From an uncultured Candidatus Micrarchaeota archaeon (GTDB lineage Archaea; Micrarchaeota; Micrarchaeia; Anstonellales; Bilamarchaeaceae), in contig OY970229.1 of the NCBI GenBank assembly GCA_963714085.1, positions 864,001 through 928,000 of the forward strand: a stretch of 64,000 nt of DNA, read 5' to 3'. The position numbers and the translations under genes are program-made. Positions 49,921 to 61,316 of this stretch are shown one piece after another; position 1 is the stretch's first letter, and each line of letters begins with the position of its first letter. The notes beneath the pieces are model-generated. The model was not told the DNA's origin, searched no databases, and saw only the letters and a program-made list of their open reading frames with translations.

Positions 49921-51357
49921 TCAGAAATTCGACTGGTGCCTGTCCCCGTAGTCGTCTTCCTTCCTCCAACAGAATCCTCTCCTTATTTCAATCCCCTTCT
50001 TGGTGATGTTGAAGCTGCACAGCTCCGTGGTGTGGTTTGTGTTCCTCATCTTCACGATCTCTATGGCCCTGGTCCTCTTGTTGCCGCGCCTCAGGTTGTA
50101 GAGGTGTATTATGCCGTCCGTGAGGAAGCCCATCCTGCCCTGGGGCGCGGAGCTGGGGGTGAGGGGATCTTCGGAGGTCACCAGGGTGGTGCAGTTCAGG
50201 CCGTGCAGCATTTCGAACAGCTCCAGTATCGAGCGGTTCGCCTCGTACTCGGTGTTGAATAGCAGGAAATACGCGCTCAGCGAGTCTATCACTAGCCGCT
50301 GCGTGCCGCTGGACTCTATCATGTCCTTTATGGAGCCGCCGCCCGCGCTTATGATATCCTTTATCTCGTGGGGCTCGTACCTGGCGAAGATGAACTTCTT
50401 ATCCTTCTCCAGCTTCTCGAAGTCCCAGCCGAAGAGCATGCCCCGCTTGAATATGGCCTCGCGCGACTCCGCGAATGACAGGTACATGCCCGGCTCGTTG
50501 TACTTCGTGGCCCCGTACCAGAGGTACTGGAGCGCCAAGATGGTCTTACCGACACCAGAAGTGCCCTTGACGACTATGGAGTTGTTGCGCTCCAGGCCCC
50601 CCTGGATCATCTCGTTAAGTCCTGGCACGCCTGTTTTAACGCGGTCGCTGCGGGCTGATTTCGGCTTCGCCTTCTTTGCGGTTGCCTCTGCTTCCTGCTC
50701 ACGGACCGGTTCATCCACTGTTTCAAACTGCAGTTTCGGCTTCTTGGCGATGACTTCTGCTTCCTGTTTCCGGACCGGGATATCAGCCTCAGGCTGCATC
50801 TCCGGCTTCTTCGCCACGGTTTCTATTTCTTGGCCCTGGATTGCGACCTCAGCTTTGGTTTCAGGCTGCAGCTTCGGTTTCTGCTTTTTGACCATTGTTT
50901 CTGCTTCCTGTTTCCGGACCGGGATGTCAGCCTCAGGCTGCGTCTTAGGCTTCGCCTTCTTTGCGGTTGCCTCTGCTTCCTGCTCACGGACCGGCTCAGC
51001 CACTGTTTCAGGCTGCGTCTTCGGCTTCTTGGCAATAACCTCTGTTTCCTGCTCACGTACCGGAACCTCAGCCACTGTTTCAGGCTGCAGTTTCGGCTTC
51101 TTGGCGATGACTTCTGCCTCCTGTTTCCGGACCGGGGCATCAGCCTCAGGCTGCATCTTCGGTTTCGCCTTCCTTGCCATAAATCGCGGATGCGGCTTCG
51201 GTTTCTTGGTCACGTATCGATATCTCAGCTTCGGTTTCTGCTTCTTAGACATAGAGTGCCAGAAGTCCTGGATCGCCAAGATGGTCTTGCCCACTCCGAA
51301 GGTCGACTTCTTGGCCCTGGATCGAGATCGGTGCTTCGGTTTCGCCTTCTTGGCCAT
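49921..51357 (-). CDS. KaiC/RecA-superfamily ATPase with a long N-terminal repeat region
   Basis: VKTGVPGL..GG, GTSGVGKT, SFAES, LVIDSLS, RAIEIVKMR. Confidence 0.88.
   Translation of the reverse strand: MAKKAKPKHRSRSRAKKSTFGVGKTILAIQDFWHSMSKKQKPKLRYRYVTKKPKPHPRFMARKAKPKMQPEADAPVRKQEAEVIAKKPKLQPETVAEVPVREQETEVIAKKPKTQPETVAEPVREQEAEATAKKAKPKTQPEADIPVRKQEAETMVKKQKPKLQPETKAEVAIQGQEIETVAKKPEMQPEADIPVRKQEAEVIAKKPKLQFETVDEPVREQEAEATAKKAKPKSARSDRVKTGVPGLNEMIQGGLERNNSIVVKGTSGVGKTILALQYLWYGATKYNEPGMYLSFAESREAIFKRGMLFGWDFEKLEKDKKFIFARYEPHEIKDIISAGGGSIKDMIESSGTQRLVIDSLSAYFLLFNTEYEANRSILELFEMLHGLNCTTLVTSEDPLTPSSAPQGRMGFLTDGIIHLYNLRRGNKRTRAIEIVKMRNTNHTTELCSFNITKKGIEIRRGFCWRKEDDYGDRHQSNF
50660..51180 (-). 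repeat. In-frame tandem repeats (about 7 units of 23-26 aa)
   Basis: Unit approximately AKK(AK)PK.QPE....PVR.QEAE. Visible as DNA repeats. Confidence 0.9.
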
Positions 51358-57722: not shown

Positions 57723-58721
57723 TCAGGCATGGTCCTGGAACTGCTGTGTGAACTTTCGCAGTGCCTCCAGCTTGGCCATCGCAGCACCGGAATCGATGGA
57801 TTTGCATGCAAGCCTAAGTCCCTTGCCGACGCTCTCCACCATACCGGCCACATAGATGGCGGCAGCGGCATTGAGCACGGATATATCCCTGGCGGCGCCC
57901 TTCTCTCCATTGAGCACGCCCATGGTTATGCGGGAGCTCTCCTGCTTCGAGCCCGCCTTCGGGATTTCCCTCCGGGAGATGCCGAAATCCGAGGCACGCA
58001 TGTCCCGCGTCCACATCTTACCGTCCCGGACCTCGCTGATCCTCGTGCGTCCCAGCCCAATCTCATCCATGCCATCGGAATGCACGACCAATGCCCTTTT
58101 CGTACCAAGGTCCAGCAGTACCCGGGCAATAATTTCGGTCAGCTCGGAGTCGAAAACGCCGAGTACCTGGGCGCTCGCTCCGGCTGGGTTGGCGAGCGGG
58201 CCGAGGATGTTGAAGACCGTGCGGGCGTTAAGCTCCTTCCTGACACCAGCCACGTTCTTCATGGCGGGATGGAAATAAGGTGCGAACATGAATCCTATGC
58301 CAATATCATTGATGCATCCGGCCACTTCTTCAGGCTGCAGCATCTTGACGCCCAGCTCCTCGAGCACGTCGGCCGAACCGCAGCTGCTGGACACCGCCCT
58401 GTTGCCGTGCTTGGCGATCGCCACGCCGGCCCCTGCCGCTATCAGCGCCGCGGTGGTGGAGATGTTGAACGTGCCGGACGAATCTCCTCCGGTTCCGCAT
58501 GTGTCAACGAGCGGCTCTCTCAAGGGTCGGATGGTCCTGGCATGGCTTCTCATTGCTTCGGCCAAGGCAGTGATCTCATCTTTGGTCGGTCCTTTCGTCT
58601 GCAGCGCGACAAGGAAGATTGCTTTCTTCAGGGGCTCTGAATCCGGGCTCATGAGCATGTCCATGGCGGCCCTGGCCTCATCCCGAGTGAGGTTCTTCCT
58701 CTGCATGAGTTTGCGATGCAT
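57723..58721 (-). CDS. trpD: Anthranilate phosphoribosyltransferase
   Basis: DTCGTGGD, FNIST, KHGNR, GSADVLE, FNILGPLANP, DGMDE. Confidence 0.96.
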   Translation of the reverse strand: MHRKLMQRKNLTRDEARAAMDMLMSPDSEPLKKAIFLVALQTKGPTKDEITALAEAMRSHARTIRPLREPLVDTCGTGGDSSGTFNISTTAALIAAGAGVAIAKHGNRAVSSSCGSADVLEELGVKMLQPEEVAGCINDIGIGFMFAPYFHPAMKNVAGVRKELNARTVFNILGPLANPAGASAQVLGVFDSELTEIIARVLLDLGTKRALVVHSDGMDEIGLGRTRISEVRDGKMWTRDMRASDFGISRREIPKAGSKQESSRITMGVLNGEKGAARDISVLNAAAAIYVAGMVESVGKGLRLACKSIDSGAAMAKLEALRKFTQQFQDHA

Positions 58722-58783
58722 ATTTCATCCCTGCCATACACATACATTGAAGTCCTTATAAATCCACGGTGCGTTCCTATCCC

Positions 58784-59263
58784 ATGGCAAAACCAGGCAT
58801 TTGGGTGCTTATCGGTTTCATCGTGCTTTCTCTTCTCGCTGGCGCCATCGGCTCGCTCTTCACGTTCCAATCCATACCTGGCTGGTACGCCTCGCTCCAG
58901 AAGCCCTGGTTCAATCCGCCAAATTGGGTGTTCGGTCCGGTGTGGACACTTCTTTATATCCTCATGGGCTCGGCCGCATACCTGGTCTATGAAAAAGGGC
59001 TGAAAAACAAGGAAGTTCGCTCCGCGCTCGAGGTCTTCGGTATACAGCTCGCGTTCAATGCTGCATGGTCCATAGCGTTCTTCGGGCTGCGCTCTATCTC
59101 AGGCGGCCTGGTCATCATAGCCCTGCTCTGGCTCTCCATAGTTTGGACGATGATTCTTTTCTGGAAACTCTCCCGCAACGCTGCCTGGTTGTTATCGCCC
59201 TACATCCTTTGGACTAGCTTCGCAGCTCTGCTCAACCTCTCGCTCCTTTTCCTGAACCGCTGA
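58784..59263 (+). CDS. tspO: TspO/MBR tryptophan-rich sensory protein
   Basis: WYASLQKPWFNPPNWVFGPVWTLLY, PYILW.SFA..LN. Confidence 0.93.
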   Translation: MAKPGIWVLIGFIVLSLLAGAIGSLFTFQSIPGWYASLQKPWFNPPNWVFGPVWTLLYILMGSAAYLVYEKGLKNKEVRSALEVFGIQLAFNAAWSIAFFGLRSISGGLVIIALLWLSIVWTMILFWKLSRNAAWLLSPYILWTSFAALLNLSLLFLNR

Positions 59264-59265
59264 AT

Positions 59266-59298
59266 AAAAAAAAAGCCGGCCCCTTTCAGGGCCGGCTT
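59266..59298 (-). terminator. Hairpin plus U-tract terminator downstream of leuA
   Basis: 10-bp stem aagccggccc/gggccggctt with a 6-nt loop and an adjacent A-run (T-run on the minus strand). Confidence 0.75.
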
Positions 59299-59303
59299 GG
59301 CAT

Positions 59304-61103
59304 TCATTCCGATACGGCGGGGTATTGCGCCCTTAATTCTTCCAGCGCGTGGATCGCGTTGTAGCCCTTCACAAAGGCCTCGATGGATGCTCTGACCGTG
59401 TCCGTGCCGACAACTGAAGACTCGACCTCCGATTCTCCCTTTTTGACGCTCATGGTGATTCTTCCCCGGGCGTCGCTTCCCCCGCCTATCCCGTGGGATT
59501 CGTAGGACGAGATTTCCACGCCCGTGCCATTGCCTATGGCAGCCCGGATCGCTTTTACTCCCGCATCCACAGGACCGTCTCCGCTGCTGTCCTCGCCAAC
59601 GACGTCTTCTCCATTGACCCTGACCCTCACGCGCGCATAACGCCCCGCATCTCCGGTCCTGACCTCCTCGACGCGGACGTCATCGACCAGGCTGCACGGC
59701 TTGTCCATCACCGCGGCGTAAGTCATGAGGAGGAAGTCCGCGTCGCTCACCGCGCTGGCCGCGGCCATCTCCTTCACTGCAGCCAGGATGACCGGCACCG
59801 TATCCTGCGGGACGCTGATGCCGAATTCATCCAGCTTGAGGACGATGCTCTTGTTCCCGGCGAGCCCACCTACTTCGACAGTCTCCTTTCTGCCTATTAT
59901 CTCCGGGGCGTAAGCTATGTACACACTTCCTCTGTCCCTTCTGTCAGACTCTGCGTTCTGCGTGACGGTCTTTTTGCTTTTGAAAACCCCGTCGGCGTGG
60001 ACGCCCGCCGTGTGCGACCCCGCCTTTATCCCGACGTACGACGCGTTCGGCGCAGGTCCGACCCCGAACCGTTCTGTCACGAAAGCGGACATCCTGGCCA
60101 GTTGGCTCACGTCAAAGTACTCAATGCCGTAGTTGAGGTACATATACATTGCCACCTGCTCCATCGACGCGTTCCCCGTCCTCTCGCCCACCCCGTGCAT
60201 CGTGACCTGCGCCACGTCCACTCCGGCGAGCATGGCCGCGATCGTGTTCTGCACCGCCATGCCCATGTCGTTATGGCAGTGCACCTGGAGAGGCAGTTCG
60301 GGGATTTCCGAGCGGATATACGATATGAGGCCGTACATGTAGGCCGGGTCGCACACTCCGATGGTGTCCGGGATGTTGTACTGGATGCCATGGCCACCGG
60401 CTGCTTCGTATACCCTCTTCCCTACCTCCACGATATGGGCCGGGTCCGCCCTCGCCGCGTCCTCGAGCGACACTATGATGTTGCCGAACTCCCTTTGCCC
60501 GGGGTCGAAGCCCTTCCCCCTGGCGTATCTCACGCATTCCACGATATGCTCTATGAGCTCTTCCGGCATCTTGTCGAATTTCACCCATGCGTGCGGGATG
60601 GAGCCAGAGGAGTAGATGTGCATAGTGTGCGCCTCCGCTTCTATCGCGGCGTCTATGTCCCTCTGCACCATGCGGCCGAGGCTGACGATTTCGGTCTTCA
60701 TGCCGGCTTCCCGCACCATCCGCCTCACCGTCCTTATGGCCTCGATCTCGCCCGGGTTGCTCACTGCATTGCCGACCTCTATTATAGGTATGCCGCAGCG
60801 GGCCAGCATCATGCAGATGTCGACCTTGTTCTCGACCACCGACCTTCCGGTCTGCTCGGTGATGAAGGCCTCCCTGGTCTGCATGCCGTCCCTGGCCGTG
60901 GTCTCGAATAACTTCTTTCTTCTGAGCCTTGCTACGGTCTCCCCGTCCCGTGCGACCATGGCACGGCCATATCCGTCGGCATAAGGCCCTATCACCTCGA
61001 GATACTTGTTCTTTCTCTCTTCCCACCACCCGAATTTCCTCACCGCATCCGGCATCGCCCTGATTGCCGGGCGCGCCATAACAATCCTTTGTCCGTTTTG
61101 CAT
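59304..61103 (-). CDS. leuA: 2-isopropylmalate synthase family (LeuA/CimA) with C-terminal regulatory domain
   Basis: ETTARDGMQ, EDA.R, PDTIG, HCHND.GMA, GERTGNA, GDGPVDA. GAGGTG precedes ATG 61103. Confidence 0.8.
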   Translation of the reverse strand: MQNGQRIVMARPAIRAMPDAVRKFGWWEERKNKYLEVIGPYADGYGRAMVARDGETVARLRRKKLFETTARDGMQTREAFITEQTGRSVVENKVDICMMLARCGIPIIEVGNAVSNPGEIEAIRTVRRMVREAGMKTEIVSLGRMVQRDIDAAIEAEAHTMHIYSSGSIPHAWVKFDKMPEELIEHIVECVRYARGKGFDPGQREFGNIIVSLEDAARADPAHIVEVGKRVYEAAGGHGIQYNIPDTIGVCDPAYMYGLISYIRSEIPELPLQVHCHNDMGMAVQNTIAAMLAGVDVAQVTMHGVGERTGNASMEQVAMYMYLNYGIEYFDVSQLARMSAFVTERFGVGPAPNASYVGIKAGSHTAGVHADGVFKSKKTVTQNAESDRRDRGSVYIAYAPEIIGRKETVEVGGLAGNKSIVLKLDEFGISVPQDTVPVILAAVKEMAAASAVSDADFLLMTYAAVMDKPCSLVDDVRVEEVRTGDAGRYARVRVRVNGEDVVGEDSSGDGPVDAGVKAIRAAIGNGTGVEISSYESHGIGGGSDARGRITMSVKKGESEVESSVVGTDTVRASIEAFVKGYNAIHALEELRAQYPAVSE

Positions 61104-61200
61104 GAACCACACCTCTTTTTTTGTTTTTCACGACGCAGGAAAAAAGCAAGGCTAAGGGTATTTTTTCTATAAATCCGGGGTTCTAAGTGTGGTGTGGCCG

Positions 61201-61269
61201 CTAGGCCAGCAAAAGGAGCAGGCTGAGCGTGATGGAATTAGAGCTGATTTTTCCGCTCATGGCTTGCAT
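61201..61269 (-). CDS. Leu-rich leader peptide (candidate attenuator uORF)
   Basis: Own translation: (MQA)MSGKISSNSITLSLLLLLA*, codons ctc agc ctg ctc ctt ttg ctg. TATA-like TTTAAAAA at 61301-61294. Confidence 0.7.
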   Translation of the reverse strand: MQAMSGKISSNSITLSLLLLLA

Positions 61270-61316
61270 ACTGGTTCTTTGTGTAAGCAAGATTTTTTAA
61301 AGGCTACCTGCCGCGC

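Follow-up and report, generated by a model that had tools for sequence, protein, structure and literature searches.

A leucine-codon leader upstream of a divergent leuA-type gene

We analyzed a 64,000-nucleotide (nt) stretch of DNA (the window; positions 864,001 to 928,000 of contig OY970229.1, assembly GCA_963714085.1) from an uncultured Candidatus Micrarchaeota archaeon of the family Bilamarchaeaceae, whose genome is represented by one contig of 1.57 Mb and is 88% complete by markers. On its minus strand the window carries a divergent 2-isopropylmalate synthase (IPMS)-type gene, and 5' of this gene lies a leader in which a short upstream open reading frame (uORF) ends in a run of leucine codons. 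Protein searches placed the closest relatives of the enzyme in Micrarchaeota metagenome-assembled genomes (MAGs). An earlier, sequence-only reading had described a TATA box, two ATGs, a run of five Leu codons, a stop hairpin and two C/A-rich boxes in this leader, and all of them are found at the positions listed here.

59304..61103, minus strand: divergent 2-isopropylmalate-synthase-type gene, monocistronic, with the next gene convergent
61294..61301, minus strand: leader TATA box, 31-32 nt 5' of the uORF ATG in 10 of 10 complete Leu leaders
61201..61269, minus strand: leader-peptide uORF of 22 codons, with an invariant ATG at 61269 and a second in-frame ATG at 61260
61254..61259, minus strand: 5' arm of helix H1, whose partner is the start of the sensing region (RNAalifold consensus)
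61224..61229, minus strand: 3' arm of helix H1, the Leu-Ser codons just 5' of the run (consensus fold)
61207..61221, minus strand: sensing run of five consecutive Leu codons of four kinds, conserved at the codon level
61195..61208, minus strand: helix H2, a 5-bp hairpin with the uORF stop (61203-61201) in its loop, invariant in 9 of 9 Leu leaders
61185..61199, minus strand: two C/A-rich boxes (proposed anti-Shine-Dalgarno), able to pair with the Shine-Dalgarno box in their own subclade only
61167..61173, minus strand: internal TATA-like box, intact in 2 of 10 aligned leaders
61138..61150, minus strand: U-tract, a candidate aCPSF1/FttA termination signal about 54 nt 3' of the uORF stop, which could also pair with the Shine-Dalgarno box
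61110..61128, minus strand: A-rich stretch and Shine-Dalgarno (SD) box of the enzyme gene, the SD core (61115-61110) being invariant in 10 of 10 leaders

The uORF is separated by 100 nt from the enzyme gene, which starts at 61103 behind an SD (61115-61110) complementary to the 3' end of the genome's own 16S rRNA (C1:1510792). A count over the whole genome of 14,376 stop-bounded frames, each with an ATG lying 8-45 codons before its stop, gave a single one that ended in at least five Leu codons; it was the leader uORF, and it precedes the only HMGL-like/LeuA-dimer (LeuA-family) gene of the genome. Because the TATA-to-ATG spacing of the leader is 32 nt, and the distances for genes genome-wide peak at 28-31 nt, the spacing implies that the uORF would be leaderless or nearly so. 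The same spacing recurs at 31-32 nt in all 10 leaders and, on this evidence alone, agrees with the leaderless uORFs of the mycobacterial type.

Conservation of the leader with its gene

Homologues were sought by protein searches of 101 relatives, 401 genomes of the phylum, all 99 genomes of the family, the GTDB collection and metagenome contigs. In a tree that came from a quick rather than a careful search, the enzyme homologues grouped in one clade (11 rows, support 100) as LeuA-family proteins on long branches. The Leu leader was kept in all 12 assessable distinct loci (ten genomes and two contigs), a count that leaves aside locus L130, whose sequence ends 52 nt upstream. In one genome (G426), it sits 5' of an uncharacterized first gene of an operon that contains the enzyme. 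The genes upstream of the leader differ among loci and include a zinc-ribbon protein, a Drg-like GTPase, a tRNA and a LeuA paralogue; the promoter and the uORF therefore travel with the enzyme gene.

Net indels in the aligned Leu leaders preserve the frame of the uORF, and its stop exchanges between TAG and TGA. Five to six Leu codons occur among the last eight codons in 12 of 13 Leu leaders, and three in the remaining one. Across the last codons of these 13 leaders, T occupies the second position in 75 of 91 cases but G occupies the third in 34 of 91, which argues that selection is on leucine codons and not on pyrimidines. A pyrimidine tract read as Leu by accident was ruled out by this codon periodicity and by variants carrying Val, Cys, Ile and Lys. 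Conservation of the leader exceeds that of neutral DNA, while the enzymes share only 38-75% identity. The sequence-only reading had tied the uORF to leuA and had suggested the leuA/cimA upstream regions of relatives as the place to look for conserved Leu-rich uORFs; the 12 of 12 loci, the in-frame indels, the synonymous Leu codons and the pathway-matched swaps found elsewhere in the family (below) bear it out. It had also pointed to the internal TATA-like box (61173-61167) as a start that would bypass the uORF. The box is present, but it is a weak candidate for the main start and is probably incidental, as it is intact in just 2 of 10 leaders.

No Rfam family matched at the leader in a scan of the window with E up to 10, and Rfam over 11 loci of the leader family returned one tRNA and nothing else. 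A loose IUPAC pattern, which matched 94 of 99 genomes, the same as its reversed control, was discarded.

Attenuators as a class have a uORF that is kept among relatives and carries consecutive codons for the amino acid of the downstream pathway, as is seen here. The prediction that this uORF belongs to the leuA-like gene, is translated and senses leucine is supported by these comparisons. The leader is thus very probably a ribosome-stalling leucine sensor, through which a shortage of Leu-tRNA would switch the gene on.

One scaffold with exchanged sensing codons

Models of the leader recovered a wider family. The first model, built on sequence only from nine Leu leaders, had matches at E up to 0.05 in 37 of the 99 genomes of the family. 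A second, built from 28 leaders, matched 43 of these 99 at E up to 0.01; with E limited to 0.001, it matched 33 of 151 genomes from the order and 12 of 151 from the class. Matches that lacked the leader anatomy were removed after viewing (3/15, 9/15, 10/32 and 4/4). The 51 copies that were kept occur in 35 genomes and two contigs, nearly all of the family Bilamarchaeaceae, with three from elsewhere in the order. Their common parts are a TATA box, a uORF of 20-30 codons, a C/A-rich spacer, a U-tract, an A-rich stretch and an SD, and most also have a stop hairpin. Each kept copy lies directly 5' of a same-strand gene or a contig end, and two genomes (G426 and G058) have five copies each.

Where non-Leu copies lie 5' of amino-acid-pathway genes, the matching residue occurs near the stop in 10 of 10, although these counts were read by eye from translations, carry no p-value and come from copies that are not independent. 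An Ile leader (three of the last seven codons) precedes a CimA-type paralogue, in the CimA half of the tree (L286). Cys leaders (3-5 codons) precede serine acetyltransferase (L289, above the cysE cut-off, and L284, just below it), and others precede cysteine synthase A (cysK; L275, above the cut-off, with an apparently frameshifted gene start) and a SerK-like protein (L335, far below the cut-off). Pro leaders (one or two in the last seven codons) lie 5' of proB (L326, above the cut-off, and L316, partial), and another lies about 275 nt 5' of proC (L317, just below the cut-off). A Phe leader (five of the last 11 codons) precedes the prephenate dehydratase gene pheA (L318, above the cut-off), an aromatic leader (10 of the last 15) lies about 360 nt 5' of DAHP synthase (L328, above the cut-off), and a Lys leader (three of the last eight) precedes an AblB-like acetyltransferase (L329, a weak match). 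Against this correspondence stand two Lys-containing leaders 5' of a protein weakly resembling glutamate-cysteine ligase (48 bits vs 409), for which no match is evident. In the quick tree, the Leu leaders precede the IPMS-type clade and the Ile leader the CimA-type paralogue.

In another genome (G037), a degenerate Leu leader lies 5' of a canonical leuA that scores above the TIGR00973 cut-off. At this locus (L270, G037:C12) the usual stop reads Trp, and the uORF is extended to 34 codons and ends in three Ile codons. The canonical leuA genes of two further genomes (G026 and G053) have no leader.

Roughly two dozen copies of the Val/Pro, aromatic and Leu types are followed by proteins without a family match or by a contig end. 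Pfam gave nothing at cut-off for the uncharacterized target proteins, and an Atlas look-up of one of them returned only scores under 0.9. Proteins of 80-250 amino acids, some in small families, lie behind Leu-, Val/Pro- and aromatic-type leaders (loci L260 in G052, L262 in G426, L263, L264, L209:2877, L285 and L265, and further L268-L272, L308-L313, L319, L324 and L339-L341). The host genome itself has a second copy at C1:250,079-251,330 (L320:1553-2752, plus strand), an SD-led, Phe/Tyr-rich uORF of 25 codons with a stop hairpin. It is followed by a gene that matches no family and is apparently divided between a frame of 79 codons and a longer one in a different phase.

The peptide itself might carry the signal, as in the nascent-peptide arrest models TnaC and the fungal arginine attenuator peptide (AAP). 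The peptide and free amino acid would then stall the ribosome at the stop hairpin under abundance and repress the gene, an explanation that we consider unlikely. It would suit the constrained length of the uORF (20-30 codons or truncated in 50 of 51 copies, with one truncated and the remaining one of 34 codons), the Ser-rich stretch 5' of the run, the small residue before the stop and the position of the stop in a hairpin. However, the run is swapped freely to match pathways, which suits a readout of tRNA charging, and the apparent conservation of the peptide is partly at the nucleotide level, since the motif before the run persists in another frame in L003, L266 and L265. Still less probable, and in our estimate the most remote of the explanations, is a product acting in trans, either a membrane micropeptide or a terminated short RNA, with control in cis secondary. 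The Leu and aromatic types are hydrophobic at the C-terminus and the 5' half is conserved, but the hydrophobic stretch is only about eight residues, the Cys, Pro and Lys types are non-hydrophobic, and the invariable position upstream of a same-strand gene or contig end argues for action in cis.

RNA structure of the leader

The consensus fold of nine Leu leaders (RNAalifold) comprised three helices: H1, H2 and a pairing of the U-tract box with the SD. H1, which joins the 5' end of the uORF to the start of the run, is 95.6% paired and has two pairs with double changes in the Leu leaders; H1 and H2 together are 97.8% paired with two double changes, a level reached by 5 of 500 shuffles. The arms of H2 change together across the leader family. 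In 26 non-redundant leaders of under 80% identity, native partners were set against swapped ones for 66 segment pairs, which gave z-scores of -5.5 for H2, -3.3 for H1, -1.9 for the run with the SD, -0.3 for the C/A boxes with the SD and +1.0 for the U-tract with the SD, all of them overstated because the leaders are related. A stop hairpin of -5 kcal/mol or better occurs in 40 of 51 leaders compared to 269 of 1101 gene stops, and most Cys-type leaders are without one. No conserved stable GC hairpin of the leuL type was found directly before the U-tract in either the consensus or the minimum-free-energy (MFE) folds. The reference leader (the one in the window) as a whole folds no better than shuffled sequences (z -0.68).

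The same leucine gauge may have a translational output, in which the SD is paired by the Leu run, the U-tract box or the C/A boxes until a ribosome parks on the run; we regard this output as a real but doubtful possibility. A strong SD is present in all leaders. The sequence-only reading had proposed about 9 bp between the boxes and the SD, and in the reference leader this duplex indeed has 9 bp in the MFE fold (-13.4 kcal/mol); it is similarly strong (-12 to -13 kcal/mol) in four close relatives. The modeled cost of opening the reference SD falls from 13.0 kcal/mol without a ribosome to 7.6-8.9 kcal/mol with one on the run. In the Leu clade the U-tract box, part of the consensus fold, is 96% pairable with the SD; the changes are all on one side, opposite an SD that stays invariant, and there is no covariation. 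The run is the best SD partner by z-score, and an invariant SD can show little covariation, so that the covariation test is weak. The poly-Cys leaders of mycobacteria (10.1101/834739) offer a direct precedent.

The pairing does not hold as a family-wide switch, however. Neither box outdoes swapped or shuffled partners: across 25 leaders the C/A boxes pair with the SD at -6.58 kcal/mol natively, -6.85 swapped and -6.2 shuffled, and in nine Leu leaders this pairing has 0 double changes and 78% paired cells. The covarying anti-SD pairing that had been anticipated was not seen in either the nine or the 26 leaders. The z of -1.9 for the run corresponds to an uncorrected p of 0.03 in one of 66 tests, with pseudoknots outside the model. 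When a ribosome footprint was masked codon by codon, the mean SD opening over 25 leaders was flat, at 5.9-6.4 kcal/mol for all A-site positions vs 7.4 kcal/mol ribosome-free, and the three closest relatives (L128, L002 and L031) showed no drop but a change in the other direction. Equilibrium folding with a masked footprint therefore showed no position-dependent switch, and the proposal that ribosome position sets SD availability fared no better in these models. The U-tract, moreover, remains near the stop in long leaders, as described next.

The U-tract and premature termination

Of the 51 copies, 44 have at least seven U in 10 nt at 20-70 nt after the stop; among SD-led genes of the host genome the figure is 32 of 213. 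This comparison is partly circular, because 39 of the 51 copies were found with models containing the U-tract, and its background comes from a more GC-rich genome. The tract (at least seven U in 10) is also present in all of the 11 leaders that were identified through protein homology alone. Eight leaders are long, with the start codon at a distance of 120-220 nt; in six of them the most U-rich stretch still lies 37-64 nt from the stop, with ties broken toward 52 nt. The host genome encodes aCPSF1, so that both a U-rich tract in untranslated nascent RNA and an aCPSF1 gene are in place, as expected of an aCPSF1/FttA terminator. FttA prefers U-rich RNA 23-36 nt from the polymerase, and the FttA structure paper (PMC11616081) advances steric exclusion of FttA by the ribosome as a hypothesis.

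These observations suggest the following sequence of events. The promoter would start the transcript 1-3 nt before the uORF AUG, judging from the spacing, and a ribosome would load at the 5' end and, by our estimate of the geometry, reach the Leu run as the stop hairpin meets the mRNA entry channel. With ample Leu-tRNA, the ribosome would finish and leave, H1 and H2 would refold, and the C/A-rich spacer and U-tract would lie bare, allowing aCPSF1/FttA to end the transcript before the enzyme gene. With scarce Leu-tRNA, the ribosome would stall on the run and stay on the nascent RNA, where it might keep aCPSF1 off by competition for Spt5 or through an altered fold, the manner of protection being hypothetical. 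The spared transcript would then extend through the enzyme gene, which would be translated from its own SD.

We favor termination as the output for several reasons: the U-tract is conserved and for the most part goes with the uORF, the genome encodes aCPSF1, whose substrate preference fits, H1 over the uORF start suits a one-shot decision, and no anti-SD covaries convincingly. Several points weigh against it. The U-tract follows the start codon instead in two of the eight long leaders, and U-tracts are just modestly enriched at the convergent gene ends of the host genome (38 of 150). A ribosome stalled on the run would be more than 50 nt from the U-tract and so is not able to cover it, and uncoupling is expected to favor termination. 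No antiterminator helix was found, as no segment pair involving the U-tract stood out with useful energy among the 66 pairs in 26 leaders. That the sensor acts through premature aCPSF1/FttA termination at the U-tract is consequently a proposal that we judge about evenly balanced between true and false.

The regulated enzyme and the missing pathway

The enzyme has the regulatory domain PF08502 and an N-terminal extension of about 60 amino acids, and it scores below all curated cut-offs (NCBIfam PRK00915, 313 bits vs 517). It nevertheless keeps the DRE-TIM catalytic and IPMS-type substrate-loop motifs when compared with Neisseria IPMS (PDB 3rmj), and it groups with IPMS-type sequences (support 89, quick tree). 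IlvE is present in the host genome, and LeuB, LeuC, LeuD, IlvB, IlvC and IlvD were not found in this 88% complete assembly. The only homologues found are an AcnA-type aconitase and an IDH-type dehydrogenase beside ATP-citrate-lyase-like genes. This cluster (C1:1,425,113-1,436,645), with ATP-citrate-lyase-like subunits, IDH and the AcnA-type aconitase, holds the only candidates for isopropylmalate processing. IlvD was found in none of the nine other leader-bearing genomes of the clade, and no match to the aconitase or Iso_dh families was found in six of these nine (completeness 56-95%). Since LeuB/C/D and IlvB/C/D were not found, the predicted leucine gauge controls an apparently orphan enzyme.

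The same absences, together with the presence of the internal TATA-like box, would be expected if the leader were a relic of a former full leucine pathway, now useless, with the gene constitutive and perhaps transcribed from that box. We think this improbable, to a degree similar to, and if anything slightly greater than, that of nascent-peptide arrest. The leader is better kept than neutral DNA at 38-75% protein identity, the active-site motifs of the enzyme are intact, the internal box is seldom so, and the scaffold has been repeatedly duplicated and retuned, as the five copies each in G426 and G058 attest.

It is puzzling that symbionts without the pathway should retain its first enzyme under leucine control; the enzyme may feed broad-specificity enzymes, a host or a signal. 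In yeast, isopropylmalate acts through Leu3 as a signal of leucine starvation. If our reading is true, isopropylmalate could likewise be a leucine-starvation signal and not a biosynthetic intermediate. In its broadest form, the reading is one of an archaeal kind of transcription attenuation: a ribosome translating a leaderless uORF would gate termination by aCPSF1/FttA at a U-tract, and the scaffold, copied and recoded for Leu, Ile, Val, Cys, Pro, aromatic residues and Lys, would drive orphan enzymes and about two dozen uncharacterized proteins in response to starvation, in symbionts that are reduced and apparently auxotrophic. We offer this full combination tentatively, and would sooner expect some part of it to fail. 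H1, the U-tract, the wider family and the missing remainder of the leucine pathway had no place in the sequence-only reading.

The leader bears on gene-by-gene translational control of termination or initiation in archaea. At 200 nt it is a compact test substrate with built-in controls, namely one scaffold, several sensing codons and matched targets. The codon run may also serve as a functional clue for unannotated proteins downstream in DPANN archaea, and it separates LeuA-type from CimA-type paralogues.

Neighboring genes and other leaders

59266..59298, minus strand: GC hairpin followed by nine U right after the enzyme stop (sequence inspection)

This hairpin and U run are probably a bacterial-style terminator of the enzyme gene; they fall between it and the convergent gene at 58769-59263. 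The trpD gene (window 57723-58721, minus strand, above the TIGR01245 cut-off) is apart from other trp genes and adjoins a superoxide-dismutase-like gene, and trpD is near the leuA-like gene in three relatives too. Another gene (window 49921-51357, minus strand) encodes what we take to be a KaiC/RadA-like ATPase; its N-terminal region is long and consists of imperfect repeats rich in Lys, Pro and Glu.

Two further arrangements were seen at LeuA-family loci. In the CimA-type paralogue of five g19 genomes (L211, L213, L214, L215 and L011), the sole SD-led ATG opens a conserved frame of 8-9 codons, which ends Glu-Ile-Gln in all five. A +1 shift at the Glu-Ile codons leads into the enzyme frame, for which most of the five have no separate SD-led start. 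This makes the paralogue a candidate for an isoleucine-hungry +1 frameshift or for termination-reinitiation. At Methanomassiliicoccales-like leuA loci (L034-L040, L131 and L132, several in bacterial MAG records), where the enzymes are of IPMS type in the quick tree, a different leader has an SD-led uORF of 11-14 codons with a Met-Ile start and Ile/Leu codons at its end. A helix of 7 bp encloses this uORF, and the 3' arm of the helix lies directly against the SD of the gene.

Comparison with known systems

The leader resembles the enterobacterial attenuators such as E. coli leuL, trpL, hisL and pheL, with which it shares a short uORF with a cognate codon run 5' of a biosynthetic gene, a U-tract downstream, and a helix joining the 5' part of the uORF to the sensing region. 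Unlike them, it has no GC hairpin directly before the U-tract and no 2:3 antiterminator was found, its uORF is predicted to be leaderless behind a TATA box and has its stop in a hairpin of its own, and one homologous scaffold, without an Rfam match, is reused for at least six amino-acid classes.

The poly-Cys leaders of mycobacteria (Canestrari et al., 10.1101/834739) likewise have leaderless uORFs with a cognate run, several loci per genome and both monocistronic and operonic targets. That report demonstrates SD sequestration by mutation and regards the loci as having evolved independently, whereas in Micrarchaeota SD pairing lacks covariation, the copies are of common ancestry and the leaders read many amino acids. 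The actinobacterial LEU element also places a Leu-run uORF 5' of leuA, and its Leu codons may pair with the SD, according to Seliverstov et al. 2005 (PMC1262725); in Micrarchaeota, by comparison, the pairing of the run with the SD is marginal (z -1.9) and no pseudoknot is predicted by a fold model that leaves pseudoknots out. Mutations of the Leu codons of the LEU element behaved unlike classical attenuation (PMC1262725), and this is a caution for the Micrarchaeota leader too.

Among archaea, the leuA-Halobacteria motif RF03001 is a conserved cis-regulatory RNA assigned to leuA upstream regions, but it has a purine-rich consensus of 53 nt, belongs to another lineage and has no multi-amino-acid family; its model had no match at our leader, the best match elsewhere reaching 22.7 bits vs 47.9. 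It is said to have been described with nearby Leu-codon ORFs, and for this reason our leader should not be called the first archaeal Leu leader. The main text of PMC5737381 does not mention RF03001. For its part, the trp system of Methanothermobacter differs in having no codon run, stop hairpin or family. The trpY/trp leader there (Xie and Reeve 2005) reportedly contains a tiny leaderless ORF of two codons, with a cognate codon, that tunes a repressor. Archaeal ribosome-profiling papers (passages of PMC7261190, PMC10117724 and PMC11456600) note uORFs to which no regulation is assigned, the string 'attenuat' occurs nowhere in PMC8116511 or PMC13675443, and PMC13158618 and PMC1854888 have just bacterial attenuation or citations. 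We found no report of Micrarchaeota leader-peptide attenuators or of such an archaeal family in a literature search that did not extend to Xie and Reeve 2005, the Weinberg 2017 supplement or papers behind subscription, all of which may bear on novelty.

By analogy, then, the leader would work like the bacterial leader-peptide attenuators, while it lacks the GC hairpin directly followed by a U-run that defines the leuL type structurally and is not recognized by Rfam. What appears to be new here is a single scaffold, present in 51 copies, whose sensing codons have been swapped to match the pathways downstream.

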